From: Alphaproteobacteria bacterium
GTDB lineage: Bacteria > Pseudomonadota > Alphaproteobacteria > Rs-D84
NCBI GenBank assembly: GCA_033345155.1
Contig: JAWPOG010000045.1
Span: 5,795 to 69,794 of the forward strand
DNA length: 64,000 nt
Direction: 5' to 3'
Shown: positions 5 to 63,218 of the stretch, in pieces
Layout: each line of letters begins with the position of its first letter
How positions within the stretch are numbered: position 1 is the first letter of the stretch
Made by a program: the position numbers and the translations under genes
The notes under the pieces: generated by a model
The model's database searches: none
Told to the model about the DNA's origin: nothing
Seen by the model: only the letters and a program-made list of their open reading frames with translations

Positions 5-1993
5 ATGGCAAAAAAATATTTAATTACATCTGCATTACCATACGTGAACAATAATTTACATATTGGTCATTTGATTGGTTGTTTGCTGCCAAGTGATGTT
101 TATGCACGTTTTTGTCGTGCAATGGGGCGTGATGTGTTGGTTGTGGCGGGGTCTGACGAACATGGTACCGCCAGTGAAATTGGTGCGTACAAAGAAAATA
201 TGCCTGTGGAAGATTATGTTGAAAAATATCGTGCGTATCAGTTGCAATCTGTCAAAGATTTTAATTTGTCTTTTGATTTATACGGTCGCACACACACAAA
301 AACACATGAAAAATTGATTCAAAGTTTATTCTTGCGCCTGCAAGAACAAGGTATGCTGGTTGAAAAAGTATCCATGCAACCATATTCCGTCAAAGAAGAA
401 AAATTCTTGGCGGACAGATTTGTTATCGGTACTTGTCCAAAGTGTGGATATGATCACGCATACGGAAACGAATGCGACAAATGTTTTGCGAGCTTGGAAC
501 CAGCACAATTGATAAATCCACACAGTGCTGTTGTACCAGATTCACCTGTGGAAATGCGTGAAACAAAGCACTTGTACTTTAAATACAGCGAAATGCAAGA
601 CGCATTACGCAAATGGATTGATTCACGTGTGGGATGGTCTAAAACTGCGTTAGCGATTGCGAATAAATGGCTGGACGAAGGGTTGCATGATGGCCCAATC
701 ACACGTGACTTAAAATGGGGAATTCCTGTCAACAAGCCTGGTTATGAAAACAAGGTTTTTTATGTATGGTTTGACGCACCGTGGGGTTATGTTTCAATTT
801 CACAAGACGCAAATAAAAACTGGGCAGATTGGTGGCATGGTGGTGATGATGTTCACTATGCTCAATTTATGGCCAAGGATAATGTGTCTTTCCATTCTAT
901 ATTCTTTCCTGCCCAAGAATTGGCGATGAACGACAACTGGAAAACAGTTGATACATTAAAAGGTTTTAATTTCTTAAACTTTGAAGGCGGCAAGGTTTCT
1001 AAATCAACAGGAAATGGGATTTTCTTGAATGAAGCGATTACAATTGCGCCGGCGGACACATGGCGTTATGCGCTGTTGGCCAGTGCGCCTGAAACAGACG
1101 ATACAGACTTTACTGTTTCCCGTTTTGCAGAAATTGTAAACAAGGATCTGAACGGTATGTTGGGAAATTTTGTCAGCCGTGTATGTAAACTGACCCAGAA
1201 AAATTTTGGAAACAATGTACCAAAATCTGGCGGCAAAAATTCAGGACTGGAATCACAAATAAATGAAAAAATATCAGAATTGACAAGTGCACTGGATGCA
1301 TGCGAATTCCGCAAATCTATTGCGGCACTGCGTGGGCTGTACGCAATTGGAAACGAATATATGACTAAAATGGAACCATGGGCGTTGGTAAAAAATGGTG
1401 AAACGGAAAAAGCAGGTGCGGTATTAAACGAATGTTTTCAGATGATTGATTTGTTTGCGCGTGTGTCTGCGCCATTTATCCCAGACGCGGCTGAAAAAAT
1501 GAAAAATATTTTCAAGTCCACACATGATTTGTCATGGCCAAAATCATACGAACATCGCATAGATGATGGCGCAGAATTCATTGTTCCTGAAAACTTGTTC
1601 AATCGCATTGATGATGAAACTGTCACAATGCTGGTTGAAAAATATACGGCAAAAAAAGAGGACATTTCTCCAAAACCAATTATCGCAGAAATTGTCGCCC
1701 TAGAAAATCATCCAACACGTGAAGATTTGCATGTGTTAAATGTAAATTATGGTGGTGATAAAAATGTACAGATTGTATGCGGAGCACCAAATGTACGCGT
1801 TGGTCTGCGTGGCGTATTGGCACCGGTTGGGGCAAAGTTACCAACATCAAAAAAACCAATGGCACAAAGAACGGTTGCGGGTGTTGAATCATTCGGTATG
1901 ATGTGCAGCGCACCGGAACTGGGGCTGTCTGGGGACGGTAAAAATATTATTGAATTGGGTGACGAATATAAAATCGGCGAAGAATATAAATAA
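5..1993 (+). CDS. metG: Methionyl-tRNA synthetase with C-terminal tRNA-binding (EMAP/Trbp111-like) domain
   Basis: 662-aa ORF. N-terminal class I HIGH motif (PYVNNNLHIGHLIG), KMSKS-like (KVSKS), and C-terminal ...VAGVESFGMMCS tRNA-binding domain. Confidence 0.95.
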   Translation: MAKKYLITSALPYVNNNLHIGHLIGCLLPSDVYARFCRAMGRDVLVVAGSDEHGTASEIGAYKENMPVEDYVEKYRAYQLQSVKDFNLSFDLYGRTHTKTHEKLIQSLFLRLQEQGMLVEKVSMQPYSVKEEKFLADRFVIGTCPKCGYDHAYGNECDKCFASLEPAQLINPHSAVVPDSPVEMRETKHLYFKYSEMQDALRKWIDSRVGWSKTALAIANKWLDEGLHDGPITRDLKWGIPVNKPGYENKVFYVWFDAPWGYVSISQDANKNWADWWHGGDDVHYAQFMAKDNVSFHSIFFPAQELAMNDNWKTVDTLKGFNFLNFEGGKVSKSTGNGIFLNEAITIAPADTWRYALLASAPETDDTDFTVSRFAEIVNKDLNGMLGNFVSRVCKLTQKNFGNNVPKSGGKNSGLESQINEKISELTSALDACEFRKSIAALRGLYAIGNEYMTKMEPWALVKNGETEKAGAVLNECFQMIDLFARVSAPFIPDAAEKMKNIFKSTHDLSWPKSYEHRIDDGAEFIVPENLFNRIDDETVTMLVEKYTAKKEDISPKPIIAEIVALENHPTREDLHVLNVNYGGDKNVQIVCGAPNVRVGLRGVLAPVGAKLPTSKKPMAQRTVAGVESFGMMCSAPELGLSGDGKNIIELGDEYKIGEEYK

Positions 1994-1994
1994 T

Positions 1995-3041
1995 ATGTCA
2001 GATATGCGTGTTGTTTTATTGTCTTGTTGCGCGCCATGTTCGTCGGGTGCAATAAAACAATTGGCAGAACATAAAATAGACGGCGTGTCTGACTTTATTG
2101 TTTTGTTTTACAATCCAAATATTTTTCCAGAATCTGAATATACAAAACGTATGAACGAGCAAATAAAGTACTGTGAACAGTTGGGTGTAAAATATGCTGT
2201 TCTGGAATATGACCATGACGCATGGCGTGATGCCGTTCGTGGGTTTGAGAACGCACCCGAACGCGGGGCGCGTTGCAGTCTGTGTTTTGAATACAGATTT
2301 CGTCGCGCGGAAAAATTTGCACGTGAAAACGGTTATAACGCGATTGCATCTGTATTGGGTGTGTCGCGTCATAAAAGTCAAACTCAGGTTGATAACGCCG
2401 CACAAAATGTTTTAAGACAAGATGTAAACGCAAAAAATTATCACGCAAAAAGATATACAAATAGGGCGTTGGCACAATCAAAATATCTTAAAAAAAATAT
2501 GACAGAGGCCGAGCGCTTATTATGGCATTATTTACGTGCAAGAAAGGATTTTTCTTTTAGAAAGCAAGCGCCGATTGGAAATTATGTTGTTGATTTTTTG
2601 TGTGTTAAAAAGAAACTAGTGATAGAATTGGATGCTGCACAACACGGCGATAAAGATAATTTTTTGCATGATATAGAACGGGACGCGTATTTAGAAAAGA
2701 ATGGTTATCGTGTTTTAAGATTTTGGAATGACGAGGTTTGTCGAGATATAAAAAAAGTGTTGAATACAATTGATGTGTTTGTGAACGACAATTGTTCAAG
2801 CCACCCCCTGTCGTCACAGTGTGTGCCGACATCCCCCGCCAAGGGCGGTGGAAATTTTATTGGCGGCCTTTCAGAATGCCCACCGCCCTTGGCGGGGGGT
2901 GGCCACGACAGTGGTCGGGGGGTGGCTGTTGAATATATGCCAATTAAATGGGATGAAAATTTACGCATTCAGATAAATCGTGCGTCAGACTTTTATCGTC
3001 AGAATTATTGTGGCTGTGAATTCAGTATCAGAAAGATATAA
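1995..3041 (+). CDS. queH: Epoxyqueuosine reductase QueH (DUF208) interrupted in-frame by a DUF559 endonuclease-like domain and a palindromic element
   Basis: ATG at 1995 (MSDMRVVLLSCCAPCS = QueH CCxPC motif). C-terminus ...FYRQNYCGCEFS is the QueH C-terminal Cys motif. The central segment KYLKKNMTEAERLLWHYLR...PIGNYVVDFLC...LVIELDAAQH...GYRVLRFWNDEV is a complete DUF559/Vsr-like domain. The ORF tool started 45 nt upstream at 1950. Confidence 0.8.
   Translation: MSDMRVVLLSCCAPCSSGAIKQLAEHKIDGVSDFIVLFYNPNIFPESEYTKRMNEQIKYCEQLGVKYAVLEYDHDAWRDAVRGFENAPERGARCSLCFEYRFRRAEKFARENGYNAIASVLGVSRHKSQTQVDNAAQNVLRQDVNAKNYHAKRYTNRALAQSKYLKKNMTEAERLLWHYLRARKDFSFRKQAPIGNYVVDFLCVKKKLVIELDAAQHGDKDNFLHDIERDAYLEKNGYRVLRFWNDEVCRDIKKVLNTIDVFVNDNCSSHPLSSQCVPTSPAKGGGNFIGGLSECPPPLAGGGHDSGRGVAVEYMPIKWDENLRIQINRASDFYRQNYCGCEFSIRKI
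2801..2925. repeat. About 125-bp imperfect palindromic element (RPE/MITE-like) lying in-frame inside queH
   Basis: Left arm ccaccccctgtcgtcacagtgtgtgccgacatcccccgccaagggcggtgg; right arm ccaccgcccttggcggggggtggccacgacagtggtcggggggtgg. The reverse complement of the right arm ends in the identical cccccgccaagggcggtgg. GC-rich relative to the rest of the gene. Confidence 0.7.
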
Positions 3042-7242: not shown

Positions 7243-8097
7243 TTATTCAAACCCCAACAATGTAAACACACCACCGACAGCCAGTATCATCAAAACCCAT
7301 ACAACAATCGGCCCCCATGGGTCGCGGAATAAAAAGCCAACAGTCTTGCCGACAACTTCGGATTCTGCAATCGTTTTTCCCGTATTCTTGGTGCCACGAC
7401 CAATTTTATAAAAAAATCTATCGATTGCGTTTTCTGGAATTTGTTTGTTATTTGTTATAGATTTTTTGATTTGCTTATCCGTATTTAAAACAAGGTCCAA
7501 CATATAAATCCGTTTTAACAATTCTGTTGTTTTTGTTTTATCTTCTTTGTTCTTGTTTTTTGATTTTAGAATTTTTACAAATTCTGATAACGCATCATCA
7601 GAAATTTGTTTTGGTATCGACTGCTTATTTGAATACTTATCACTTTTAACCAATTCGTCATCTGTCATACTGCGCATAAAATCTACAAATAATTTCAACG
7701 TGCGTTCTTGCTTCAATTCAATGCCCGGATGAAATTTTTGCCAACTTTTTGCCAATGTGTATCTAAATATTTTATAAATACTGTCATAATCCGTATCATC
7801 AACATGTGAGAAAATTGTATGATATTTCTCAAATAATTCTCTTACATCAAAATAAAAAGTTTTTTCTCCGGCATTTGTATTAACTCTTAATAAATCAACT
7901 GGCACAACCCTATCTCCAATATTTACTTTAATTAACCGTTGTTCCAATAGCTCAAATTCTGGGTATAATTTAGCGATATATATTTTCTCTTCTTTAACAC
8001 TTGATACTTTTATAAGTGGTTGATTTGGACCAAGTGTATACGTTGTGTTATCTTCTGTTAAATCAATTTTGTTTGTTTTGGGATTAAATGAAACCAT
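7243..8097 (-). CDS. Hypothetical C-tail-anchored protein (284 aa), third gene of a low-GC three-gene operon
   Basis: Long K/E/D-rich soluble region, then a single C-terminal TM helix PIVVWVLMILAVGGVFTLLGF. GC is far below that of flanking genes. No recognisable motif. Confidence 0.6.
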   Translation of the reverse strand: MVSFNPKTNKIDLTEDNTTYTLGPNQPLIKVSSVKEEKIYIAKLYPEFELLEQRLIKVNIGDRVVPVDLLRVNTNAGEKTFYFDVRELFEKYHTIFSHVDDTDYDSIYKIFRYTLAKSWQKFHPGIELKQERTLKLFVDFMRSMTDDELVKSDKYSNKQSIPKQISDDALSEFVKILKSKNKNKEDKTKTTELLKRIYMLDLVLNTDKQIKKSITNNKQIPENAIDRFFYKIGRGTKNTGKTIAESEVVGKTVGFLFRDPWGPIVVWVLMILAVGGVFTLLGFE

Positions 8098-28331: not shown

Positions 28332-29666
28332 ATGATAAAAATAACAATAGCAGGTCGTCCAAATACGGGCAAATCGACACTTTTCAATGCGCTGACGGGA
28401 ACGCGTGATGCGCTGGTTCATGACCGTCCTGGGGTCACGCGCGATACAATTTCGGGTGATTTTCGTGACCGCCCTTACAAGCTGTATGACACGGCTGGCT
28501 TGGAACGCGCCAATTCTGGTATTGCGCTGGATTCCACCAATATGGCGATTGATGCGGTATCGAACGCAGACGCTGTTTTGTTTGTGGTTGATGGTCGTGC
28601 TGGATTGACCAACGAAGACCTTGATTGGGCCAAACTGGTTCGCCGCAAAACACGCGCGCCAGTATTGTTGCTGGTAAACAAAAGCGAATCGGCAAAGCGC
28701 CTGGCTAATATCCATGATTTCTATAAATTGGGTTTTGGCGAACCTGTTTTGGTATCGGCCGAACACAAACGCGGTTTTGGCGAGATTTACGAATTTCTGG
28801 ATAAAATTGCAGGCGACGCCGCAAATGCGACTGTTCCTGAACGGTCGTCCGACAACCGCATTAAAATCGCAATCCTGGGCCAGCCAAATGTCGGCAAATC
28901 GACATTTGTAAATCGTGTTCTGGGCGAAAAGCGTCAAATCGTAATGGATGCGCCTGGTATTACCCGTGACACGGTAAAAATCCCGACCAAATTCTATGGA
29001 CGTGATATTGTTTTGATGGATACGGCGGGACTTCGTCGCAAGGCGGGGGTAACGGATGATGTTGAAACATTATCGGCATTAAAGTCGCTAGATGCGATTG
29101 ACAAAGCTGATGTTGTAATTTTAATGGTTGATGCCACCAGAAATATTGAAAATCAGGCCTTAGGAATCGCATCGCGCGTCTATAATGCGGGCAAGATTTT
29201 ATGCGTTGCTCTGAACAAATGGGATTTAGTGGAACCTGAAATTCGTGATGAAAAATTACTGAAATTAAAGCATCAATTTTCCAAATCTTTTCACCAGATT
29301 ATCAAGCCCATGATTTTGGCGGTATCTGCTGAAACGGGTACTGGTGTCCAGAATATGTTTCGTCGCATTTATGAACAGTGGGATATCTCAAATGCCCAGG
29401 CGCCAACCAGTTTGATAAATCGGATTGTTGAAAAATTGGTCGCAGACCGTCAGCCGCCTTTGTCGCGACTAAAGCGCCCAATGAAGATTAAGTTTGCCCG
29501 TCAAACAGGCCGTCATCCAATGCGTATCACAATAAATGTTGGTGGTGCGTCTGATATCCCAGAATCATATACTCGTTATTTGCGTCGTGGGTTGGCAACT
29601 GCACTGAAATGGGAACATTTGCCAATTGTGATTGAATACGAAAAATCTGAAAATCCATACGATTAA
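28332..29666 (+). CDS. der: Ribosome-associated GTPase Der (EngA), tandem G-domains
   Basis: Two GTPase domains (GRPNTGKSTLFN and GQPNVGKSTFVN) plus a KH-like C-terminus. Confidence 0.95.
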   Translation: MIKITIAGRPNTGKSTLFNALTGTRDALVHDRPGVTRDTISGDFRDRPYKLYDTAGLERANSGIALDSTNMAIDAVSNADAVLFVVDGRAGLTNEDLDWAKLVRRKTRAPVLLLVNKSESAKRLANIHDFYKLGFGEPVLVSAEHKRGFGEIYEFLDKIAGDAANATVPERSSDNRIKIAILGQPNVGKSTFVNRVLGEKRQIVMDAPGITRDTVKIPTKFYGRDIVLMDTAGLRRKAGVTDDVETLSALKSLDAIDKADVVILMVDATRNIENQALGIASRVYNAGKILCVALNKWDLVEPEIRDEKLLKLKHQFSKSFHQIIKPMILAVSAETGTGVQNMFRRIYEQWDISNAQAPTSLINRIVEKLVADRQPPLSRLKRPMKIKFARQTGRHPMRITINVGGASDIPESYTRYLRRGLATALKWEHLPIVIEYEKSENPYD

Positions 29667-29780
29667 TCCCCTTCGTCTGGCGAAGGGGTGGCGCGAATGC
29701 GCCGGGGTAGTGGTAAAATAAGGACGAATTATGAAATTACCTGTAAATAATCCCCTTCGCCAGCGAAGGGGATTTAGTTG
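29667..29780. repeat. Pair of palindromes atccccttcgYcWgcgaagggg about 85 bp apart
   Basis: tccccttcgtctggcgaagggg (29667-29688) and atccccttcgccagcgaaggggat (29751-29774). First copy abuts the der stop. Confidence 0.8.
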
Positions 29781-30184
29781 CACTATTGTATTTCTCTTTC
29801 TGCTCTTAAAAACTATAATTCTCCCCAATCCCCAGTCCCACGGCCACACCAAATGCCCCAGGTCCCCATGTCCAGTGCTTTGTGCAGCAAAGATTCCAAT
29901 ACTGTTGCGTGTATTTGGTGCGAACATTGGGTTTGCGTATGTTGTCAGTGGCGATATAATCAGGCAAAAACATCAGTACGTGTTTCATGTGAAAAATTAT
30001 GCCACTTAAATGCCCGCATATCTATTTGATAAAAATCTTAAATATAGCATAAAACACATGACTAAACTATTTACAGAGCGCCAAAAAATTGATATAATCA
30101 CAATAAACATACATGCGTTGTGCATGGTGTTTGTGTATAGAAAGGTTGGGTTTCTGGGTTGTCCAGAACACAAGGAGAGTTTTT

Positions 30185-32377
30185 ATGAGAAATCAAAAAG
30201 TTGCGAATTCTGTAAAAAATGCGATTGGGACGGTCTTTTTGTTGACTGGTGCTTTTTTTGTATGTTCGACAATGTTGTCAATTCGTTCGGTTTTTGCAGA
30301 TCCGGTTGCGCCGGCAGACCCTGTTGCATCGCAGACAGGCCCCAGGTCCGATGGGGTGGTGCGTTCTGGTCGTGCCAATGCGCGCGCCAACGCAACACGT
30401 ACAACATCATCAAATCCATCTCGCACAACCAGATCACGCAGCACTGTTCAGCCTCGTGCGGTTTCTTCCCGCGCGAATGCGACTGTGGCGGGACGCACAA
30501 ATGTCTCGCCATCTCGCAATGTTGTTTCTCGTGCGAATGTGGTTGCGAATCGTGCGAACGCTTCAAATGTACGTTCGGTTCGTGCACGAACTGCTACGAC
30601 GGATGCAACAAACGCTTCGCGTATTTCATTGCAGGGTAATGCTATTCGTGGGTCCAAGCTGTCCACTACGGGGGGTGTGACTTCCACTTATTCGTATCTC
30701 AGCAGCAAATTGCGCACAGGCAACTATTCAAACATCATTGATGCATCCACCGGATTGATTTCTGCGGACGCGTTCAACAATTGTATGGAATCTTATTATA
30801 CCTGTATGGATGAAATTTGTACTGCACGTAATGCGGCCCAGCGTCGTTGTGCGTGCGCCGGTCGTGTCAGGGCATTCGCCGATGCCGAAACCGCGCTAGA
30901 GACCGCTAACGAAGAATTGATTAAGGTTTCTGGTGAATTGGCTTTGTTGGTTGCGAACAAGGGCAAGGATATTTCCGATGCTTTCCAGTTAACGGACGCA
31001 GAAAAGGTTTTGAATTGTGTTTCATGGCAAGAAGTGACAGGTAAATATGGTCTGTCTTCTGAAGAGGCTGTAGACTGGTGCTATAATCACGGTTTTTATG
31101 GCAGTAATGGTGGCAAGGTTTCTTCGTGTGCAAAGCCATCATATTGTTCAGAATCCGGTAATAATTTTGGGTTTGATGTGACAAATCTTGATGGCAACAG
31201 TACTGATATCCTTGCGTCATTACAATCGTGGGCCGACGCCAAGGAACAGACAATAACCATCCTTGACCAAGATGAAGATGGTTTGTTGGCATCTTTTGAG
31301 AACCTGTCGTCTGTAATCAGCGGACTGGCCGGCATTGGCGGTACATTAGATTCATCAGACGATTTAAAGGACAGCCTGGCCGAGACCTGGGGCTATGAAT
31401 TGTTTGAATATGCGCATAATAATGTTTGCGCACGTGTTTTGGATTCTTGTTTTAACGGCATTTACGAGGCTTGTGGAACCCCGCCATCTGGCACCAAGTG
31501 CAGCAGTGGTACGGCCCAATGTCCATATAATTATAACAGCAAGATAAGCGTAAACAATTCTGGTACATACGAATTGAACTTTGTGACACCGTCCAGTGGT
31601 TATTCGGCAACAAATTCTGCAGCTTGTTTTGGTTATGCATCCACATCAGGTGACCCTTATTCAAGTTTGCGCGGTCCTGTTGCAGACGCTCGTCGCAGTA
31701 TTATGCAGAAATACGCATTGGATGCAAATGCAGATTGCGATGCTTATGGCGAACAGTTGCGTGCCACGGCCCAGAACATTGGTTATCAAAAGGTTGCAGC
31801 GCAACAGGCCCTGCAGCAAAAGCGTCTGGAATTTGCAAACGAAGAACGTGACACAATCCTGGCCAATGCGTTGCAGGCAGGAACAAATTTTGAAGCGTGT
31901 ATCAGTGAACTGTACGAATGTTATGATGCCCAGCTAGACAGTCACGGCCCAGGCAAGAATACTGTTTGGACGGTATCTCGTATCCGCACATATTGCGCCC
32001 AGGTTGCAAATGTTCCTTCTTGCTATGAAGAAATGATATGCACGCCATCTTCGGCTCAGTTCAAGGCGGTTGTCGATGTTGCTGACAAAAGCAATTGTTT
32101 CAGCAGTCAGGACTACACAACAAACACCTGTCGTAACATTGTAACCCTGAACGAGATTATCAATGGTACAGGTGCAATAGGTGACGAAGTCAATGATATC
32201 AACAATTTGATTTTGGCTGGCACATTATACAATAACAACAGCAATGTTAATTCCGCTGCTTTGCGTGAATATTGCTTGCGCGATGCAATCGGTCTTGACG
32301 AAAATGACGAGGTTGCAATCCGAACATGGCTAAAAACAGAATGGGATAATATGCAGGCCGCAGCAAATGAACAGTAA
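30185..32377 (+). CDS. Large secreted cysteine-rich protein with N-terminal (S/V)RAN-repeat low-complexity region (731 aa)
   Basis: RBS ggagag, ATG at 30185. Signal-anchor AIGTVFLLTGAFFVCSTMLSI. Residues about 60-170 are R/S/N/A/T/V-rich with reiterated SRANA/SRANV units. The remaining ~560 aa contain more than 30 Cys in CxC/CxxC patterns. GC-rich codon usage. Confidence 0.7.
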   Translation: MRNQKVANSVKNAIGTVFLLTGAFFVCSTMLSIRSVFADPVAPADPVASQTGPRSDGVVRSGRANARANATRTTSSNPSRTTRSRSTVQPRAVSSRANATVAGRTNVSPSRNVVSRANVVANRANASNVRSVRARTATTDATNASRISLQGNAIRGSKLSTTGGVTSTYSYLSSKLRTGNYSNIIDASTGLISADAFNNCMESYYTCMDEICTARNAAQRRCACAGRVRAFADAETALETANEELIKVSGELALLVANKGKDISDAFQLTDAEKVLNCVSWQEVTGKYGLSSEEAVDWCYNHGFYGSNGGKVSSCAKPSYCSESGNNFGFDVTNLDGNSTDILASLQSWADAKEQTITILDQDEDGLLASFENLSSVISGLAGIGGTLDSSDDLKDSLAETWGYELFEYAHNNVCARVLDSCFNGIYEACGTPPSGTKCSSGTAQCPYNYNSKISVNNSGTYELNFVTPSSGYSATNSAACFGYASTSGDPYSSLRGPVADARRSIMQKYALDANADCDAYGEQLRATAQNIGYQKVAAQQALQQKRLEFANEERDTILANALQAGTNFEACISELYECYDAQLDSHGPGKNTVWTVSRIRTYCAQVANVPSCYEEMICTPSSAQFKAVVDVADKSNCFSSQDYTTNTCRNIVTLNEIINGTGAIGDEVNDINNLILAGTLYNNNSNVNSAALREYCLRDAIGLDENDEVAIRTWLKTEWDNMQAAANEQ

Positions 32378-32378
32378 A

Positions 32379-32410
32379 ATAAAAATCCCGCATTTGCGGG
32401 ATTTTTTATT
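32379..32410. terminator. Bidirectional terminator shared by convergent genes
   Basis: aataaaaatcccgcatttgcgggattttttatttg. Confidence 0.8.
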
Positions 32411-33442: not shown

Positions 33443-34165
33443 CTAGATTGCGCGCGCCACACGACAAAATGTTACGCCGTAAACAGCTGTTGCGCCCGCC
33501 TGAATCAGCACTCGTCTCAGTTCGGAAAATGTTGCGCCAGTTGTCATAACATCATCGACCAGTAAAATCCGTTTACCTCGAATTTTATCAGGCCTGGTAA
33601 CCCAGAAGCATCCACGAATATTTTCTGCGCGTTCGCGTGCATTTTTATGTCCCATATCATCACGATATTTACGATGAACTGAATCCAAATCCATTTTTAT
33701 ACCTGTGGCCTTGGCGATTGGTCGTGCCAATAATGTGGCCTGGTTGTATCCACGTTTGAACAGCCTGCGATTTGCCAAAGGCACCGGCATAATAACATCT
33801 GCGTCTATTTGAATATCGTGCAAAGCCAATATCATTGCACGTGCCATAAAACGCGCATAGCGGATTTTTCCACCATGCTTAAACGGCAACATGGCCGCAC
33901 GTGACGCATCATCATACACGCACGCAGACCGTATCCAGTCCAATTCAGATTTTCCAGCCGCACAAACCGGACACAGTGGCATGCCACCCAAATCCAAATC
34001 TGCTGGGAACGGATATCCGCATTTGACGCATTTTGGGTTGTTAATCCAGTTCAACTTGGTCCAACATGTTGCGCATAATTCGCCGTGTGTTAAAACCGGC
34101 GTATCACACAAAGGACACGCCGGCGGAAATATAAAACTGGTTAAATCAGACAGTATTTTTACCAC
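33443..34165 (-). CDS. comF: ComF/GntX-family phosphoribosyltransferase-domain protein
   Basis: N-terminal Zn-finger CPLCDTP...CATCW...CVKCGYPF and C-terminal PRTase motif ILLVDDVMTTGATFSE. Confidence 0.8.
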   Translation of the reverse strand: MVKILSDLTSFIFPPACPLCDTPVLTHGELCATCWTKLNWINNPKCVKCGYPFPADLDLGGMPLCPVCAAGKSELDWIRSACVYDDASRAAMLPFKHGGKIRYARFMARAMILALHDIQIDADVIMPVPLANRRLFKRGYNQATLLARPIAKATGIKMDLDSVHRKYRDDMGHKNARERAENIRGCFWVTRPDKIRGKRILLVDDVMTTGATFSELRRVLIQAGATAVYGVTFCRVARAI

Positions 34166-35355
34166 GACATTCTGGACGCTTGGTTATCTGTGTCACCACC
34201 AAAGATATCACGTTGTTGTTGGGACAGTGTCTCGTACTGGTCGCTGGAAATAATACGCAGGGTCAAGCCAGAATCTGTATCATTCGATAACACAGGTATA
34301 ATATGTTGCTGGGAAACCCCGTTATCGATAAGTGCCTGTTCCACAATTGCCAAACGGCGGGCTGCTAATTTGCGTCCATTTTTTGTTTTGGTCATTCTTT
34401 TTGGAATCCCCAGCTGAATCGCGCGTGTTGGTTTTCTGACCACGATACCTGCGTACTCCATCAACAGATTGTAATTGTCACGTGACAATGCAGAATCATC
34501 GTTACGAAATTTGATTTTTATTTCCAGTGGACGAATTCTGTTTTCTTCGGACAGATCGCGTTGCGATGAAAAACGAGCAACCGTTGCAGACATATTGCTG
34601 GCCACATCAAATTCATCATCTGGATAGGTTGACAAGTGTTTGTTTTCTGACAAGAAAGTCTTTCTGAATGCCTGACGCAGTTCTGCTGGATTCATATTTG
34701 TCATATCGTCACGCGCCATGATGATTCGCGGTGTGTTTTTCTTTTTAACATCGCGCACAATAACATCCTTGTTTTTAATTGATGCTGTGCGTTGAGTGGA
34801 TTTGCCTTGTGTTTTTGTCTTTGTTGCGGCGACAATCTCGCCAGATGCGTTTCGTGCGCTTGTGCGTTTTTGCAATTGTTTTGGCGATTCGACCTGGTTG
34901 TTATTTTTCGCCATTGGCGTCAAGACCGGCGCAGGTACAGGTGCTGTGACAATTTTTTTACCAATGCTTTCTTCGGGCAACAGACTGTCTGAACGAATCA
35001 CCGAAAATTCATTTGCTGTTGGCATACGCAAAGCAAAATCATTTGTTGTACTGGTGCTGTTTTTTGCCCACAAATCATCGCTTGGTCGTTGTGGCAACAG
35101 CACATCATTAACCGTCAACAATTGTTCCCCAGTATCAACAGGTGTCGCCGTCATTGGCTTTTGTGCGGTTCGCGCAACCACAGTTCTTGTTCGTGTAGAT
35201 TCGGCGACCTTTGTATTTGTTTTTGCGACTTCTTCTCCGAATGCGCTGCGCGCAGAAACACCAGCGGATGCAATATTTACAACCGGCAAACGCGCCATCG
35301 CCACAGTTGGCATTACGACCAGAACTGATAATATACTAACTGTAATAAAACGCAT
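34159..35355 (-). CDS. Secreted hypothetical protein, possible OmpA-C-like C-terminal domain
   Basis: Start chosen at MRFITVSILSVLVVMPTVAMA (signal peptide) with a GGAAGG RBS. C-terminus ...KLAARRLAIVEQALIDNGV resembles the OmpA_C fold pattern. Weak. Confidence 0.45.
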   Translation of the reverse strand: MRFITVSILSVLVVMPTVAMARLPVVNIASAGVSARSAFGEEVAKTNTKVAESTRTRTVVARTAQKPMTATPVDTGEQLLTVNDVLLPQRPSDDLWAKNSTSTTNDFALRMPTANEFSVIRSDSLLPEESIGKKIVTAPVPAPVLTPMAKNNNQVESPKQLQKRTSARNASGEIVAATKTKTQGKSTQRTASIKNKDVIVRDVKKKNTPRIIMARDDMTNMNPAELRQAFRKTFLSENKHLSTYPDDEFDVASNMSATVARFSSQRDLSEENRIRPLEIKIKFRNDDSALSRDNYNLLMEYAGIVVRKPTRAIQLGIPKRMTKTKNGRKLAARRLAIVEQALIDNGVSQQHIIPVLSNDTDSGLTLRIISSDQYETLSQQQRDIFGGDTDNQASRMSW

Positions 35356-35497
35356 GGTTTCCTTTCCTTCCATCCTTATCATATAACAAATGTCGAATCG
35401 CACGCAAGTGGAAAATGTTGTTTTAACGACAATACCTTGCATAAAAATAAATGACTGTTATAATTCAGGCGAACAATGAACCAAAGGACAAGTTTAT

Positions 35498-52030: not shown

Positions 52031-52101
52031 TTGGCTGGATTTTTTTCGGGGGGGCTAGAAATCGTTTTTATTAGGTTGTGGTTTGTGGTATAATACAACA
52101 T

Positions 52102-53064
52102 ATGAGAAAAAGAACTTCGTCTGTTTTAACGATTTTGTCGTGCTTGGTGGCTGTGCCGGCATTTGCTGGCTGGCAATATTCAGGGGAATATCTGGGGGGC
52201 GGTTGGTATGTTGATGATGGAACGCGTTTTGTAATTTCTGCGCGTGGGGGTGCGGCCTTTGGCGGTGGCGGTATCAATAATGACATAGGCGGGGTGGTTG
52301 TCGGTTATTATTTGTTGCCTGGGGGCGAACCTGTGACTGCTGAATACTGTTATTTAACTGGCGGTTGTGACAGCCTTGTTTTTGCAGGATATGGTACCTT
52401 GGGCGATTTGCCTGCATCAAAAGATTTTGAAAGTTTCTCGTTCGCTGCCGGTGCAAGTATTGGTTGGACAATTCCGCACAAGCCACAGTGGCGTATCGAG
52501 GGTGGCTGGGATCATATTTCAGAAACTGATTATAATTCGTCGCCTATGTTCCAGGGGGATTTATCCTTGGTCGAAGGCGCTATATCATCTGCCTATATAC
52601 AAAGTTCGTCTATTCAATCCAAGGTGACAACAGATGTTATAAGCGTCATGGCGTTTTATGACTTTTTCGATGGGCTGTATAAACCGATACAACAAATAAT
52701 TCCTTATGTTGGTTTGGGGGTTGGTTATGCTGATTCACAAACGGTTTTGAATTTATCTGATCCATGGGTTGATATTTCCGCACAGAACGAGTTCAAGATT
52801 TACGGTGTGGCGGACGAAGACTATGGGCTAACTGTATTCTATAAATCTGAATACAACACAACAAATGTGGCGGGCCTGCTAGCGGCTGGTGTATCCTATG
52901 GCATAAACGAAACCATGTTCTTGGATTTTGGTGTTCGTGCCATGTATTTGCCGCGCATCAAATGGGAATTGTCGAACGAAGACAGCAGCAAACATCGTGA
53001 ATTTTTCAGTGCCGAAAATGTTTTCTATGTTAATGCTATGTTGGGTTTGCGGTTCGAGTTTTAA
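52102..53064 (+). CDS. Outer-membrane beta-barrel protein (C-terminal ...LRFEF)
   Basis: Signal peptide SVLTILSCLVAVPAFA, Gly/aromatic-rich alternating strands, terminal Phe. Confidence 0.6.
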   Translation: MRKRTSSVLTILSCLVAVPAFAGWQYSGEYLGGGWYVDDGTRFVISARGGAAFGGGGINNDIGGVVVGYYLLPGGEPVTAEYCYLTGGCDSLVFAGYGTLGDLPASKDFESFSFAAGASIGWTIPHKPQWRIEGGWDHISETDYNSSPMFQGDLSLVEGAISSAYIQSSSIQSKVTTDVISVMAFYDFFDGLYKPIQQIIPYVGLGVGYADSQTVLNLSDPWVDISAQNEFKIYGVADEDYGLTVFYKSEYNTTNVAGLLAAGVSYGINETMFLDFGVRAMYLPRIKWELSNEDSSKHREFFSAENVFYVNAMLGLRFEF

Positions 53065-54802: not shown

Positions 54803-55116
54803 TGAAGGGATTCACAAAAACGGTCGAAGACTTTAACTGCGCCCATTGCGGCGCAGTTGTGCATGGCAACGGATACACCAACCATTGCCCAGTATGTCTG
54901 TGGTCGCGCCATGTGGATAATAACCCAGGCGACCGTGCCGCAACATGTGGTGGCATGATGGCCCCAATCGCCGTTGAAACAGATGGTGATAAATTTATTA
55001 TCACGCATAAATGCCAAATTTGTGGCAAAATCAAACGTCAGCGCACATCAGATGCTGACAATATGGACGAAATTATTCGCATCTCGCACAACAGTACATT
55101 TATTTTTGGGAAATAA
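54802..55116 (+). CDS. RNHCP-domain zinc-ribbon protein
   Basis: CAHCG...TNHCPVCLWSRH...CQICG motifs. The ATG overlaps the gapR stop. Confidence 0.65.
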   Translation: MKGFTKTVEDFNCAHCGAVVHGNGYTNHCPVCLWSRHVDNNPGDRAATCGGMMAPIAVETDGDKFIITHKCQICGKIKRQRTSDADNMDEIIRISHNSTFIFGK

Positions 55117-56068
55117 TTCCTTGGTTTATCATATTTTCGGAACCCATAATATCACGAATTTCATCGATACAGATTTGCGTCATAGTTGTACGCGCCTCAG
55201 ATAAAAATGCACGCGGGTTAAAGTTTTCCGGATTTTGCGCCAATTCGCGTCGTGTTGCGGCAACAAAGCCCAACCTCAGGTCGCTGTCCACATTTATTTT
55301 GCAAACATTCATTTTTGTTGCGCGCCTCAGTTGCGCTATGTCCAGGCCACGTGCCCCAGAAATTTCACCGCCAAAATCATTTATGGTTGTCACCAGTTTT
55401 TGAGGAATATTTGATGCGCCATGCATAACCAGCGGAAATTCAGGCATGCGCGCCGCTATGTCTGCCAGTATATCGAACCGAAGTTCTTCGTCCTGGTGGC
55501 GCCGTTTATGTGCGCCATGACTGGTGCCTATGGCAATCGCTAAAGAATCAATACCCGTTTGTGTGGCAAATCTTTCCACATCTGCCGGATTGGTATAACT
55601 GGATTTATCGCTGAAAGTATTTTCATCTTCTATGCCGGCCAGCACCCCCAACTCGGCTTCGACCGAAACATTATGTTTATGTGCGGCTACCACGACGCGT
55701 TTCGTGATTTTCACATTTTCATCAAATGGTAATTTACTGGCGTCAATCATAACCGACGAGAATCCCAGTTTAATCGCTTGTACGCATGATTCCAGGCTGG
55801 AACCATGGTCCAAATGCAGTGCTATTTTATCATCTGGTGAAATTTTTGCCCCCAAAATCATTCCCTGCAGCATATCTGGCCCCATATATTTCAACGCGGA
55901 TTCAGACACTGCCAAAATTACAGGACTGCGTGTCATTCGTGCCGCGTTCAAGACCGCAGACAACGTCTCCATATTGAAAAAATTAAAAGCTGGCACAGCA
56001 TATTTGCGTGCGATTGCATCTGCGAACATTTCATTGGTGTTAATCAACCCCAGTTTTGTATATTTCAT
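55100..56068 (-). CDS. fba: Class II fructose-bisphosphate aldolase
   Basis: N-terminal YAVPAFNFFNMETL, Zn-binding His residues (LHLDHG, GTSHG). 322 aa. Confidence 0.85.
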   Translation of the reverse strand: MKYTKLGLINTNEMFADAIARKYAVPAFNFFNMETLSAVLNAARMTRSPVILAVSESALKYMGPDMLQGMILGAKISPDDKIALHLDHGSSLESCVQAIKLGFSSVMIDASKLPFDENVKITKRVVVAAHKHNVSVEAELGVLAGIEDENTFSDKSSYTNPADVERFATQTGIDSLAIAIGTSHGAHKRRHQDEELRFDILADIAARMPEFPLVMHGASNIPQKLVTTINDFGGEISGARGLDIAQLRRATKMNVCKINVDSDLRLGFVAATRRELAQNPENFNPRAFLSEARTTMTQICIDEIRDIMGSENMINQGIISQK

Positions 56069-59083: not shown

Positions 59084-61342
59084 ATGTCAGCAAAATTCAA
59101 CTTTTTATCAGCGTCGGGTAAGGGCAAGGGATTAAATATATTCCGGTCGTCTGCGTACAAAGAACACGAGCAAACGCCACTGGCGCGTGAATTTTGGTCG
59201 ATACGCTGGTCGATTATCATATGGATTATTGCTGCGATAATGGTTGCGGCATCTTTTCCGATTGAACACATTTGGCGGTATGGTTGGTCGCCGGCATCGA
59301 AACATTGGTTGATGATATATTTGCAAAATTTGTTTGCGTCGGGTGGGCTGTCTGTGTTGGCGGAATTACCGGCATGGATTGGACGATCTGTGATGCGCCC
59401 CGATATTGAATGCATTACACCACTGTTGCCAATTATTGGGTACTATTTTCTGTCTGATGCAACAATGACAGATGAATTTAACCCCCACAGCAAGGATAAG
59501 TTCGACGAAAAAACCGCACGTGTCGCAACCGCAGATGATATTAAGAAAATGGGCCAGGATTACAAGAACAAAGAAGGTTTGTTCAAGGGTTTTATGATGG
59601 TTCTGGGATTCTTCAAGGGCAAACCATTAATGTTTGATGAATGTCTGTCTACATTATGCGTTGCGCCCCCCGGGACCGGTAAAACCAAGGGTGTTGTGGA
59701 ACCGACAATTTTGGAATGCGATACGGTTTCCATGATTATTAACGACCCAAAACCTGAATTAAAGCAGACAACATCCGGATATCGTTCAACAATTGGCCCC
59801 GTATTTATTCTGAACTGGGCGGGTCAGGACGACCCTGCGCGTGGTGTTTACTATCCGTCATGGAATCCTTTGTCGCCGGGGCATGTGCCTTTTAATACCG
59901 AAGAACGCGACCTGTACGTAGATTCGATTGTGAATACATTAATTCCGGACCGTTCATCGTCTTCGGCGGACCCGCACTGGACAATTACGGGGCGCGCAGC
60001 ACTGACGGGATACATTCAATTCATTATTTCCAAGGTTGAACGTGCCAAGGCTGACGACTATTTCTATGCCCGTATATCAAACGGCACATTTAATGCCGAA
60101 GATGCAGCTGTGTTGTCTGATTATTATTTATCAATGAATTCGGACCCGAACGCCTATGCGGCGCATGCCTTGTTGCAACGGGGGGAACTAAATGCGATGA
60201 ATTATGTTCATGTCGGAACATGGGAACACATTCCTGATGCATGGCGTGGACGCGAGGCATCTTTTTCCATGATTCTGGATTGGCTGAATGCATCACAAAT
60301 TGCCATCGCCGAAGATATCGAAAACCGTCGCCGCCAGGGTGACCAGATGGTCATGATGGCAGACCCTGCCAAAGATATGTTTATGAAAGCTGTGGACGAA
60401 GCGCGCAGATACGCCTATTCTCATCGTGCAATCCAGGAATTAACCCAATTGGCCAGTACCCCCGACAAAGAACGCGGTTCTATTATGTCAACGGCGCAGT
60501 CGGGGCTGAATATATTCCGTAATGCCGCCGTGCGCAATCGTACAAGTCATTCAGACTTTCACTTTTCTGACCTGCGCGGTATGGTCGATCCGCGCGACGG
60601 CAAGATTAAACCAATTACAGTTTATTTGTCTATTAACATGGTTGATGCCCAGGCGTTGAATCCGATAACGGCAATATTCATTGAATTAATGTCGAATTTC
60701 TTGTTGGCGCACAAGCCCGGCGACATGCATCATGGACAAAAGCTTGGGCCGTGTCCAGTCTTGTTTGCGATTGACGAAATGCCAAAAATGCAAAAGCTGC
60801 GTGCGATTATCGAAGGGCCAGATCTTGGGCGTGGACAGAAAATTTCATACCTAATTATCGGCCAGGACCTGCACCAGATTCAGGAAAAATATGGTGCCGA
60901 TGCAGCCGCGACCATTATTTCAACAACAGCCGCGAAAATTGTTATGCGTCAAAATGACCCAGATACCGCAGACCGTTTTTCAAAAATGATGGGGTATAAA
61001 ATGAAAAAGAAAACCGTCAAAGGACCAGACGGCAAAGACAAAGAAGAAACCACCGAGGAATTACTGTTCACGCCAATGGATATCATGAAAATGAATCCCG
61101 AAGAACAATTGGTGATTATCCAGGGACACTATAACCGTCCGATTAAGGCAGACCAAGAACGGTGGTATAAAAACACAACTGCAATCCAGAAAAAAATGTA
61201 TGCCAAGGTTCAAATGGGTGAATGTGCGCCACTGCCTGAATTCTTGGTGCCGGCACATCACAGGGCGTTGGGGTATTCTGGTACGCCACGTATATATGAC
61301 CCCATGACCCAGCAAATCAAAGAATTGGTTTCAGCACAATAA
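59084..61342 (+). CDS. virD4: Type IV secretion coupling protein VirD4/TraG family (T4CP)
   Basis: N-terminal TM pair, Walker A VAPPGTGKTKGVV, Walker B-like LFAIDEMP, TraG/VirD4 all-alpha domain. tataat immediately upstream. Confidence 0.85.
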   Translation: MSAKFNFLSASGKGKGLNIFRSSAYKEHEQTPLAREFWSIRWSIIIWIIAAIMVAASFPIEHIWRYGWSPASKHWLMIYLQNLFASGGLSVLAELPAWIGRSVMRPDIECITPLLPIIGYYFLSDATMTDEFNPHSKDKFDEKTARVATADDIKKMGQDYKNKEGLFKGFMMVLGFFKGKPLMFDECLSTLCVAPPGTGKTKGVVEPTILECDTVSMIINDPKPELKQTTSGYRSTIGPVFILNWAGQDDPARGVYYPSWNPLSPGHVPFNTEERDLYVDSIVNTLIPDRSSSSADPHWTITGRAALTGYIQFIISKVERAKADDYFYARISNGTFNAEDAAVLSDYYLSMNSDPNAYAAHALLQRGELNAMNYVHVGTWEHIPDAWRGREASFSMILDWLNASQIAIAEDIENRRRQGDQMVMMADPAKDMFMKAVDEARRYAYSHRAIQELTQLASTPDKERGSIMSTAQSGLNIFRNAAVRNRTSHSDFHFSDLRGMVDPRDGKIKPITVYLSINMVDAQALNPITAIFIELMSNFLLAHKPGDMHHGQKLGPCPVLFAIDEMPKMQKLRAIIEGPDLGRGQKISYLIIGQDLHQIQEKYGADAAATIISTTAAKIVMRQNDPDTADRFSKMMGYKMKKKTVKGPDGKDKEETTEELLFTPMDIMKMNPEEQLVIIQGHYNRPIKADQERWYKNTTAIQKKMYAKVQMGECAPLPEFLVPAHHRALGYSGTPRIYDPMTQQIKELVSAQ

Positions 61343-61403: not shown

Positions 61404-62249
61404 TTATGGACACAAAGCCAATTGTTTTAATACATTCTGCACGTCATTATTCACAGAAACGGTTATCTTGCGCCGCAATCCATCTATGTATGTATAGTTG
61501 AATTTTGTATTCTTAAATTCTGGATATGCCTGGTACATTTGTTGAAATGGCGCCAACATAGCCCGGAACCATTGCCGACTTCGACACAGGCAACCGTTGC
61601 GCACATCTGCCACCACCACAGAAGTAGCTGTATTTGGATACATTGCGTCCAAATCATGGTCAGACATCATCAGACAGCGTGCCCCAAATTCGTAAAAATT
61701 CGCATCGTCAGACAAGAATTTATAAACTAAACCATCGCTGGCCCCTGCCTGCTTCAAAGCGTATGTCATACCGTCTGTACAGCATGCCTGGGCGGAACGC
61801 ATTAACATCTTGTACCGTTCTAATAATGGTGCGGCCTCGGGCATGTTTGCGTTAAAACCCTCGTTGTAATCGGCGGCATACAAAAATTCTGAAACCGACA
61901 CATCATTCAGTCGTGCGCTGCGTGGCGACACTGTTTCCCGAATAATTGGTTTTTTACGCCAAATATCACATTCTGCTGTGGTTTCAAATGGACACCAATA
62001 ATCAGCAATTGTAGTGTCAATCATCATATCGTATGCCCCGGTTGTAGTTCCAGTCATATCGCTGATGACATAATTTTGGTTCATCATATCTTGCTGATAA
62101 AATCCCGCATCGGTTTGTGTCCATTCGGTATCCATCCCAATTTCCATCGAATTGACATCACAGTCCGTACCGACACAATCAGACGCATGTGAATTTTGCA
62201 GCCCGTAAAGACACAACAAAGACGACAAAATAAATATCTTGGCTTTCAT
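61404..62249 (-). CDS. Secreted cysteine-rich hypothetical protein (281 aa)
   Basis: Signal peptide IFILSSLLCLYGLQNSHA and about 13 Cys, including CVGTDC, ACCTDG, GCLCRSRQWF. Confidence 0.5.
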   Translation of the reverse strand: MKAKIFILSSLLCLYGLQNSHASDCVGTDCDVNSMEIGMDTEWTQTDAGFYQQDMMNQNYVISDMTGTTTGAYDMMIDTTIADYWCPFETTAECDIWRKKPIIRETVSPRSARLNDVSVSEFLYAADYNEGFNANMPEAAPLLERYKMLMRSAQACCTDGMTYALKQAGASDGLVYKFLSDDANFYEFGARCLMMSDHDLDAMYPNTATSVVVADVRNGCLCRSRQWFRAMLAPFQQMYQAYPEFKNTKFNYTYIDGLRRKITVSVNNDVQNVLKQLALCP

Positions 62250-62363
62250 ACCTGTTATTATATCACAAAAATATAATGGATTAAAGTGCGTTTTTTATTG
62301 TTCAAAGCATATAAAAACCTTTATAATAATACTGTCTTTATAACTATAACCCAGGGGGAACTG

Positions 62364-63218
62364 ATGAAAAAAATATCAATACTGGCTTTATTGTCTGTGT
62401 TTGCTATACCTGCGTATGCGACTGATTCCAATGTTGCGCCGACCCAACACCAGGAAACGGCACAAACCGAACATGGTTTTTTACATGGGGTTCAGGTTGG
62501 GGTTGGCTTGTCCGCCACATCTGGCTTGAATGGTTTTGTTGGCTATGCTAACAAAGATTTTGATTCTTTTTGGGCCAAACGCTTGGGGTTAAGATTTGAT
62601 TTTGCCACTACCAAGCCGATTAAATCATTGATTAATGACGGCATAGATTCTGTGTTGGGCGATGACGGAATTGATTTAGGCGATTCTTTGACCATTAACA
62701 AGGGCAAAGCTGATGCGCATCACTATGCAGCGATGGTAGATTTTTATCCATTTGGCGACGCATGGTTTTTTGGTGGATGGCGCATAAGCGGTGGTTATTA
62801 TATGGGTGAAATGAATATGGTTGCGGATATCGCGGGTACAGTTGACGGCAGTACAGGCTATTATGAATTTGAACTGAACGGCAATAAATATGCCTATGCG
62901 GGTAATTCTGTCCATGGCACAGCGCAGTTGGATTGGGAATATCGTGGCCCATACCTTGGCACAGGTTTTGATTTGGGCTTGTTTGGTGGGGTTAAGATTT
63001 ATCTTGATGCTGGTGTTGTATTTACGAACAAGGCAGCCCAGTTGTCATTGGATGTTCCAACGGATAATTTGCAACAGTGGGATGGTTCTGCATGGGTTGC
63101 ATTTGATGCTGTGGATTTGGAAACAGTTATATCAGAAACATTATCAGACGCCCAGTCTGAATTGGATGATTTCAAATTTTATCCTGTGGTCAAGATGGGG
63201 TTCATGTATCGTTTTTGA
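62364..63218 (+). CDS. Outer-membrane beta-barrel protein (C-terminal ...MGFMYRF)
   Basis: RBS aggggga, signal peptide ISILALLSVFAIPAYA, terminal Phe. Same architecture as the 52102-53064 protein. Confidence 0.6.
   Translation: MKKISILALLSVFAIPAYATDSNVAPTQHQETAQTEHGFLHGVQVGVGLSATSGLNGFVGYANKDFDSFWAKRLGLRFDFATTKPIKSLINDGIDSVLGDDGIDLGDSLTINKGKADAHHYAAMVDFYPFGDAWFFGGWRISGGYYMGEMNMVADIAGTVDGSTGYYEFELNGNKYAYAGNSVHGTAQLDWEYRGPYLGTGFDLGLFGGVKIYLDAGVVFTNKAAQLSLDVPTDNLQQWDGSAWVAFDAVDLETVISETLSDAQSELDDFKFYPVVKMGFMYRF

Follow-up and report, generated by a model that had tools for sequence, protein, structure and literature searches.

Among described proteins of comparable build to the one reported here is OmcB of the chlamydiae (Chlam_OMP6/DUF11), a Sec-exported, cysteine-rich envelope protein of about 60-75 kDa from a host-dependent bacterium with a reduced genome, which has a basic N-terminal region that binds polyanions and a body that is cross-linked by disulfides. 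We analyzed a stretch of 64,000 nucleotides from an alphaproteobacterium of the Rs-D84 lineage (assembly GCA_033345155.1, contig JAWPOG010000045.1, positions 5,795 to 69,794; hereafter the window), and in it a gene that starts at position 30185 and is predicted to encode a signal sequence, an arginine-rich disordered tail and a cysteine-rich body. We refer to this gene and its product as the target.

Candidatus Enterousia, the gut lineage to which the organism of the window belongs, is placed in the order Rs-D84, has genomes that are mostly smaller than 1 Mb, and lacks the tricarboxylic acid cycle, a respiratory chain and flagella. Its biosynthetic pathways and transporters are few, and it has been proposed that it leads a "partner-dependent lifestyle" and that uncharacterized membrane proteins serve cell-cell interaction in Rs-D84 (PMC12306168). 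A preliminary description of the target, made from the window alone, had placed it in an intracellular bacterium and considered it a surface adhesin or an effector of a type IV secretion system (T4SS). An intracellular lifestyle is not established, because Rs-D84 is also found in higher termites that are free of flagellates (PMC11257099).

Results

Relatives and distribution of the target

The target matched no described family. Pfam gave 0 matches at E <= 1 for the 730-amino acid (aa) protein, PADLOC gave 0 matches, and NCBIfam returned nothing but spurious hits to NagK and FlbT (15-17 bits, against cut-offs of 153-380). Among PDB sequences, which were searched with the protein, the full alignment and a profile of its N-terminal cysteine module, nothing scored below E = 0.18, and the matches to TrwJ/VirB5 (E = 4.5) and IpaD (E = 0.6) were discarded as noise. 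Foldseek searches of PDB (with two structural models) and of BFVD yielded nothing below E = 0.3, and the PDB matches, obtained from models of moderate quality, all had E > 1 and TM-scores < 0.3. The motif strings were found nowhere in the searchable literature. As the family was also absent from viral contigs and from PADLOC, we rejected the possibility of an anti-phage defense or phage-borne protein. The suggestion that this is a new family without a recognizable domain was thus borne out, and by these comparisons the target is a founding member of a superfamily that has not been described before and is restricted to its lineage.

By word-indexed search we obtained 1197 homologues; the best 120 are 62-96% identical to the target along their whole length, and each is named "hypothetical protein". 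An exhaustive scan with HMMER, covering 1.84 billion cluster representatives, matched 147 clusters, 38 of them below 1e-30. A relative is encoded in 292 GTDB species (one genome per species), and 80 loci were kept. The gene was intact and full-length in every one of these 80 loci, at 58-91% identity, so that disruption in other isolates, which the preliminary description had named as grounds for its refutation, was not seen. The closest genomic matches are metagenome-assembled genomes (MAGs) from the guts of ruminants, birds, mice and humans, which bear the names Candidatus Enterousia, Alphaproteobacteria bacterium or uncultured Rickettsiales. Judged by this distribution, the target is a native, single-copy core gene of its lineage. 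It evolves somewhat faster than core envelope genes and more slowly than other secreted proteins, as exemplified by one locus (L004) in which the target was 75% identical to its counterpart, Der 94%, LptD 86%, ComF 82%, DUF2147 64% and a neighboring 427-aa secreted protein 63%.

Conserved cysteines and export

The body of the target contains 24 cysteines in 566 residues (4.2%, compared with 0.92% in the 39 other open reading frames (ORFs) of the window) and is acidic, with an isoelectric point (pI) of 4.4. The C-terminal region is cysteine-dense, as had been described, but the protein has a total of 25 cysteines, 24 of them past the signal peptide, rather than the more than 30 first reported. 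The reported CxC and CxxC arrangements shrank to a single CxC (C222/C224) and no CxxC; what recurs instead is a Cx6C spacing, at residues 200/207, 415/422, 439/446 and 572/579.

All 24 mature cysteines are conserved, 17 being invariant and 7 present in at least 90% of the homologues. The number of mature cysteines is even in 60 of the 67 full-length family representatives (binomial p = 1.3e-11, for sequences that are not independent of one another). Moreover, cysteines were lost in pairs: C439 and C446 always disappear jointly in divergent relatives, and joint loss was also seen for C638/C649 (seven relatives), C299/C315 (three) and C430/C481 (two). This analysis of the disulfide pattern, together with the N-terminal signal, points to an oxidizing, extracytoplasmic location, in agreement with the original description of a secreted protein. 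We conclude that the protein is almost certainly exported out of the cytoplasm and that its body is probably held by about 12 disulfide bonds.

At the N-terminus, inspection of the sequence placed a hydrophobic segment at residues 14-33 and a possible cleavage site, VFA/DP, at 38/39, consistent with the signal-anchor noted previously. A38 and P40 are invariant among the homologues and D39 is conserved in at least 90% of them. Residues 1-38 are unusually conserved as a whole (0.74) and were modeled by AlphaFold2 (AF2) as a single helix from residue 4 to 36. A lipobox of the form [LVI][ASTVI][GAS]C was absent from the end of the signal, where the sole cysteine, C27, stands in the context F-F-V-C with a disallowed valine at -1.

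Architecture of the body

The structure was predicted with two AF2 models of moderate quality (predicted template modeling scores of 0.36 and 0.43), which show a disordered tail followed by a mostly alpha-helical, elongated body, including one helix of about 92 residues that precedes a cysteine-rich, helical C-terminal part. The features of the gene and of the predicted protein are collected in Table 1. The five-cysteine N-module is the best-conserved block of the protein (0.87-0.90), and its five cysteines are invariant; CMESYYTCMDEICTARNAAQRRCAC occupies residues 200-224 and TDAE residues 270-273. Inside a segment modeled with very low confidence lies a conserved, glycine-rich hydrophobic stretch, VISGLAGIGGTL (residues 367-378, positions 31283-31318), which could be a conditionally folding element or one that inserts into a membrane or a partner. 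At the other end, relatives of 840-1190 aa bear extra cysteine-rich repeat modules (C...CxxGY/F...C), and one distant relative carries Ephrin_rec_like repeats.

Table 1. Positions in the window of the target gene, its candidate signals and the parts of its predicted product
Feature	Positions	Strand	Remarks
Sigma-70-like promoter candidate	30070..30098	+	TTTACA-17-TATAAT with TG before the -10 (extended -10); 11/12 matches, consensus only
Shine-Dalgarno sequence AAGGAG	30172..30177	+	7 nt 5' of the ATG at 30185
Coding sequence	30185..32377	+	730 aa + stop (731 codons); A-type member of the CMD-motif cysteine-rich secreted protein superfamily
Sec-type signal peptide or signal-anchor, residues 1-38	30185..30298	+	N-terminal (n-) region of charge +3, 20-residue hydrophobic (h-) region, then VFA/DP
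Polycationic disordered region, residues 39-165	30299..30679	+	19 Arg, 1 Lys, 3 Asp, 0 Glu; pI about 12
Five-cysteine N-module, residues 190-290	30752..31054	+	C200, C207, C212, C222 and C224 in CMESYYTCMDEICTARNAAQRRCAC, then helices and TDAE
Conserved low-confidence segment, residues 337-396	31193..31372	+	Predicted local distance difference test score (pLDDT) <50; conservation 0.67
Small beta-rich cysteine-knotted insert, residues 429-481	31469..31627	+	C430, C439, C446, C481; strands in model
Predicted continuous helix of about 92-95 residues, residues 493-587	31661..31945	+	pLDDT 75-95; DANADCD, C518, C572, C579
Variable acidic C-terminal end, residues 661-730	32165..32374	+	Conservation 0.19-0.52
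Bidirectional intrinsic-terminator-like hairpin	32381..32406	both	11 bp stem with 5 GC pairs, T-runs on either strand; consensus only

The polycationic tail

Between the signal and the N-module, residues 39-165 form a low-complexity region of net charge +17 that contains 0 cysteines and 0 aromatic residues and is disordered in the AF2 model (pLDDT <50). Arginine makes up 19 of 124 residues (15%), compared with 5.5% in the 39 other ORFs of the window. These properties agree with the disordered N-terminus that had been proposed. Its construction from repeats was confirmed in part: Tandem Repeats Finder detected no DNA tandem repeats in the coding sequence, and what the protein does contain are degenerate short peptide motifs, among them 11 units of the R-x-x-x type.

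Within this tail R96, R130 and R135 are invariant and individual arginine and valine positions are conserved, and relatives that are only 32% identical to the target still retain the blocks SR[NG]V[VT]SR and R[AN]V[RV]AR[TS]A, which shows that more than composition is maintained. In the disordered regions of the 67 full-length family representatives, R-x-[VI]-x-[SA]-R occurred 67 times, about 17-fold more often than in composition-preserving shuffles (3.8 +/- 1.8), a statistic that overstates independence because the motif was defined post hoc and on related sequences.

A superfamily of paralogues sharing the N-terminal module

The weaker HMMER matches, proteins of 700-1370 aa with 20-78 cysteines, aligned only with residues of about 40-277 of the target. 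The signature C-x3-[YF]-x2-C-M-D-x-[FIL]-C-x8-R-C-x-C was present in 95 of the 147 representatives, 130-300 residues from the N-terminus, and a helix and T-[DE]-[AG]-E come after it; the target contains both elements, as CMESYYTCMDEICTARNAAQRRCAC and TDAE. At least four types could be told apart, namely A (the target, CMDEIC), B (CQEQYNECMDQFCAVID), C (CRETYFSCMDEFCANKD) and D (CREAYNTCMDQFCAKAN). In profile-profile comparisons types B, C and D were homologous to one another across 350-450 residues (E = 1e-50 to 1e-83), whereas type A shared with them only the N-module (residues 190-306; hhalign probability 99%, E = 1e-17 to 1e-21), apart from a weak second match between residues 506-565 of A and 365-424 of B (E = 7e-4). 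By these profiles the A type is the most divergent branch of the unnamed superfamily.

Common to every type are a signal peptide, a basic tail with a net charge between +3 and +22, and a body that is acidic (pI 4.1-5.4); the target displays the whole set, with its Sec-type signal, arginine-rich tail, signature and acidic body with an even number of cysteines (24). The signal peptides of the B, C and D paralogues are short, classical ones that end in AXA. The few members that carry an organism name come from MAGs of Rickettsiales, Alphaproteobacteria or Proteobacteria and are each annotated as "hypothetical". As far as these matches show, the superfamily is confined to gut alphaproteobacteria with tiny genomes (Candidatus Enterousia/order Rs-D84).

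The search for paralogues, which the preliminary description had proposed, thus revealed at least three other types, and these are arrayed in related genomes. A metagenome scan for the non-A signature gave at least 120 loci. Two or three family genes stand together in at least 27 loci, as same-strand A-B pairs or as arrays of C, D and unclassified members that include head-to-head pairs; a paralogue follows the A-type gene on the same strand, 1-4 kb downstream, in about 27-35 of the 80 loci, and a B-type gene occupies such a place in about a third of the Enterousia loci. The arrays sit among housekeeping genes, and in at least three loci they adjoin clpP-clpX, as seen for arrays made up of three C/D-type genes. 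Examples are found at L024 13527-15701 (+), L104 2123-10207, L181 1-8022 and L193 3068-10193.

Gene structure and composition

The ORF exists as described, except that the length of 731 counts codons including the stop and the product has 730 aa; the peptide strings quoted previously are all present in it. A start at position 30185 agrees with the N-termini and lengths of the homologues, more than 100 of which share an MK/RxQK N-terminus and which are 705-736 aa long. A longer ORF that begins at 30113 is unsupported, since both the AAGGAG sequence and the homologous N-termini favor 30185. We found a candidate promoter and a candidate terminator (Table 1), as expected for a gene that had been credited with its own promoter region and terminator; both are consensus matches only, and promoter-like sites across the region were no more common than in shuffled sequence.

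The GC content and codon usage of the target had been thought to differ from those of its housekeeping neighbors. They do not: its GC content at third codon positions (GC3) is 0.42, the window mean being 0.413 (standard deviation 0.044), and its synonymous-codon distance to the other genes of the window is 0.103, compared with a mean of 0.143. On these two measures we rejected horizontal transfer, and a foreign origin found no support. A surplus of GC at codon position 2 (0.494) stems mostly from the tail (56% GC), and thus has its source in the amino acid composition, which is rich in Arg, Ala, Ser, Thr and Cys.

Genomic context

The window encodes housekeeping functions throughout. Der, LptD, LptF/G and a permease of the LolCE type, together with the ATPase of the latter, are encoded upstream of the target; DUF2147, ComF, HAD, PBP1, MraY, FtsW and MurG lie downstream, and MetRS, MnmG, Skp, IleRS, LpxD, TolC-AcrB, GyrA and pyruvate kinase are also present. 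Synteny with der and lptD did not extend beyond the six or seven closest genomes. The most common neighbor elsewhere, in 48 of the 80 loci, is a gene that lies about 200 bp upstream, mostly in divergent orientation, and encodes a 185-aa outer-membrane protein similar to PagL; pyruvate phosphate dikinase and rplU are further frequent neighbors. In the window a PagL-like remnant is located at 29832-29972 (-), within an ORF at 29565-29927 (-), and retains about 50 codons of the N-terminal part (54% identity, E = 7e-13). Its truncation where it meets the 3' end of der suggests rearrangement and gene loss. As only a remnant persists, the PagL-like gene is not required by the target, and the idea of a conserved operon partner was rejected on the grounds of this truncation and of the der/lptD synteny being limited to the closest relatives.

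The T4SS coupling protein on which the effector proposal was based is indeed encoded in the window, by a VirD4-type gene at 59084-61342. This gene is an orphan 27 kb away from the target, between genes for rRNA/tRNA modification and unannotated secreted proteins. Directly beside it, an ORF at 61404-62249 (-) encodes a protein of 281 aa with a classical signal peptide, 10 mature cysteines (3.9%) and no Pfam match, which is a candidate for another disulfide-rich exported protein. The ORFs at 62286-63218 (+) and 52078-53064 (+) encode proteins with signal peptides, without Pfam matches and with the C-termini ...MYRF and ...RFEF; as such ends are typical of outer-membrane beta-barrels, these may be lineage-specific porins or outer-membrane proteins.

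Closer to the target, the gene at 34159-35442 (-) encodes the 427-aa secreted protein mentioned above, which has no Pfam match, contains a milder basic stretch rich in Ser, Thr and Arg near its N-terminus (ARSAF, TRTRTVVARTA) and shows synteny with comF in relatives; its evolution is fast, with 46-63% identity compared with 78-89% for PBP1. The ORF with the lowest GC content in the window (31.8%; GC3 0.27), at 7243-8097 (-), encodes a lysine-rich protein of 284 aa with a C-terminal hydrophobic helix and no Pfam match, and may be a foreign or fast-evolving gene. At 1950-3041 (+) a single ORF of 363 aa contains two domains, a QueH epoxyqueuosine reductase at residues 22-171 and a DUF559/REase-like endonuclease at residues 174-277. 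A class II fructose-bisphosphate aldolase is encoded at 55100-56068 (-) (Pfam E = 4.6e-90), although Rs-D84 genomes were reported to lack it (PMC12306168).

Discussion

Taken together, the signal, the tail and the paired cysteines are best accommodated, in our tentative opinion, by an extracytoplasmic envelope protein in the form of a disulfide-stapled helical rod that is tethered by its basic tail and ends in a variable C-terminus; we consider this reading plausible, if somewhat short of probable. Once exported by the Sec route, the body would take on its fold in the periplasm, an elongated helical rod with approximately 12 disulfides as staples. The signal, the basic tail and the five-cysteine module would serve as a common address or anchor across the paralogues, and the tail may tether the rod by binding, through its charge and its specific motifs, an anionic component of the envelope (lipopolysaccharide, peptidoglycan or a protein of the outer membrane) or else the surface of a partner cell. 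Interactions would then be specified at the distal end of the rod by the variable C-terminus, and in a bacterium of reduced genome that depends on partners the paralogues might jointly form an envelope or cell-contact layer specific to the lineage.

Several observations weigh against this proposal. In a diderm, a Sec signal by itself predicts the periplasm rather than the surface, and neither a signal for translocation across the outer membrane nor a linked secretion system was detected. An anchor that stays uncleaved in the inner membrane would also be compatible with the long conserved h-region. Dsb-like genes, sought as ORFs with a thioredoxin-type CxxC in the window and the 80 loci, yielded none that was convincing, and the host is an anaerobe without a respiratory chain (PMC12306168). 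To these must be added the moderate quality of the models and the post hoc definition of the tail motif, and the binding partner of the tail is one that we purely infer.

The default periplasmic location of a protein without an outer-membrane sorting signal leads to the alternative of a tether similar to TonB, TolA or FtsN, in which an uncleaved helix anchors the protein in the inner membrane, the tail spans the periplasm and the rod acts in envelope spacing or integrity. The target has the same order of parts as these proteins, that is, a hydrophobic N-terminus, a low-complexity linker of about 125 residues and a folded periplasmic domain. The high conservation of residues 1-38, their modeling as one helix and the 20-residue h-region would all suit an uncleaved anchor, and LptD, LptF/G, the LolCE-type permease and PBP1, encoded nearby, serve envelope biogenesis, even if this synteny is found in the closest relatives only. 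However, the invariant VFA/DP junction obeys the rules of signal peptidase I and is a probable cleavage site, the B, C and D paralogues have short, classical cleavable signals before the same tail and N-module, and the C-terminal cysteine-rich extensions of relatives look extracellular. In addition, TonB_C, TolA and SPOR-type domains went undetected in Pfam searches, and the linker is rich in Arg, Ser, Thr and Asn with R-x-V-x-S-R, not in Pro, Lys and Glu. We therefore regard a periplasmic tether as unlikely, while giving it real weight. Improbable, in our judgment, is a secreted toxin or a bacteriocin-like, membrane-active protein, whose arginine-rich tail would enter the target envelope in the manner of colicins and whose helical bundle would insert into membranes by its glycine-rich segment. 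As a mechanistic analogy only, a disordered N-terminus that bears short linear motifs for binding at the envelope is reminiscent of the unstructured translocation domains of colicins and of the RcsF linker, which threads through outer-membrane proteins, and the conserved VISGLAGIGGTL within a low-confidence region, the elongated helical model, for which the ClyA pore and a Tc toxin were among the (insignificant, E > 1) Foldseek matches, and the arrays of paralogues would be compatible with such a role. Colicins, however, have no Sec signal and act on other cells, and there is no homology to them, nor did the sequence searches and the fold searches, the latter with models of moderate quality, give any significant similarity to toxins; no small immunity-like gene is conserved next to the target in the 80 loci, and the family is absent from PADLOC and viral contigs. 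A single-copy core gene that is moderately conserved in 292 species is also unlike the patchy, fast-evolving genes of toxins.

The density of the cysteines and their Cx6C and CxC spacings, in an anaerobic, non-respiring host whose oxidative folding machinery is uncertain, might alternatively indicate a periplasmic metal- or sulfide-binding protein that uses its cysteines as ligands instead of in disulfides. The even parity in 60 of 67 representatives and the pairwise losses point to pairs, not clusters, and neither His/Cys cluster motifs nor CxxC were found, nor any match to metal-binding families in Pfam and NCBIfam, so that we think this very improbable. Least credible to us is delivery into a host cell as a T4SS effector through the VirD4-type coupling protein. 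In its favor are the coupling protein encoded in the window and a lineage that has reduced genomes and is possibly dependent on a host or partner. Coupling-protein-dependent T4SS substrates, however, are recruited in the cytoplasm and lack Sec signals, whereas the target has a Sec-type signal and a disulfide-rich body with 24 conserved, paired cysteines. Its last 70 residues are acidic, are the least conserved of the protein and are replaced or extended in relatives, and no conserved signal for translocation, be it a basic tail or one of the BID or E-block type, is found in them; linkage to T4SS genes was absent from the window and the 80 loci. An effector role is accordingly unlikely.

The reading as an extracytoplasmic, tail-tethered rod can be extended, on speculative grounds and with considerable doubt, to the CMD-motif proteins as a whole. 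They might be the main building blocks of an unrecognized cell-surface or attachment layer in Rs-D84, made of acidic, disulfide-stapled helical rods held by their polycationic, motif-bearing tails to the cell, and to each other or to a partner cell; the signal, tail and five-cysteine module would then be a new envelope-anchoring or sorting tag, and the C-terminal ends, whose cysteine-rich repeats in relatives are of an extracellular type, would specify the partner. If true, this layer would give a physical basis to the partner-dependent lifestyle proposed for bacteria with genomes below 1 Mb.

Enterousia and Rs-D84 are widespread in the guts of ruminants, birds and humans, with genomes of about 0.75-1 Mb and without respiration, most biosynthesis and standard transporters (PMC12306168). 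For a genome of about 900 genes, keeping several paralogues of 700-1000 aa from one exported, disulfide-rich family is a heavy investment, so that the CMD-motif proteins are prime candidates for the machinery of envelope or cell contact in this lineage. The polycationic, motif-bearing disordered region and the five-cysteine module may constitute a new N-terminal anchoring or sorting module, and the superfamily is also a case in which the oxidative folding of proteins can be tested in an anaerobe that does not respire. Should the function prove mundane, for example that of a periplasmic scaffold, the value of these findings would lie mainly in the definition of a new Pfam-type family. At present the target is a well-characterized "conserved hypothetical" protein that is important for the biology of Rs-D84.

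Beyond the systems considered above, the surface adhesin suggested originally finds no counterpart among known families, as no domain of autotransporters or other known adhesins was detected in Pfam or NCBIfam and the C-terminus of the target is helical in the model. Long antiparallel helices with disulfide staples, as proposed for the target, are also a feature of trypanosome proteins of the HpHbR/VSG type and of clusterin, which were among the top Foldseek matches; those matches were insignificant (E = 2-8, TM-score <=0.25), and the proteins concerned are eukaryotic, have C-terminal glycosylphosphatidylinositol anchoring and share no sequence similarity with the target. Helicobacter Hcp proteins (Sel1-like) and the twin-CxnC helix-hairpin proteins also contain disulfide-linked alpha-helical segments, and a Cx6C spacing would place both cysteines on one face of a helix; the target is much larger than these proteins, is not a regular repeat and matched neither Sel1 nor CHCH profiles in Pfam. 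From OmcB, finally, it differs in having 0 Pfam matches and a mostly alpha-helical model where OmcB is beta-rich. The hosts differ as well, as Enterousia retains genes for peptidoglycan synthesis (PBP1, MraY, FtsW and MurG in the window) and thus has no obvious need for a disulfide-linked substitute of the sacculus. What the target has in common with the chlamydial protein is the size range of about 60-75 kDa, the richness in cysteine, the export and the basic N-terminal region.

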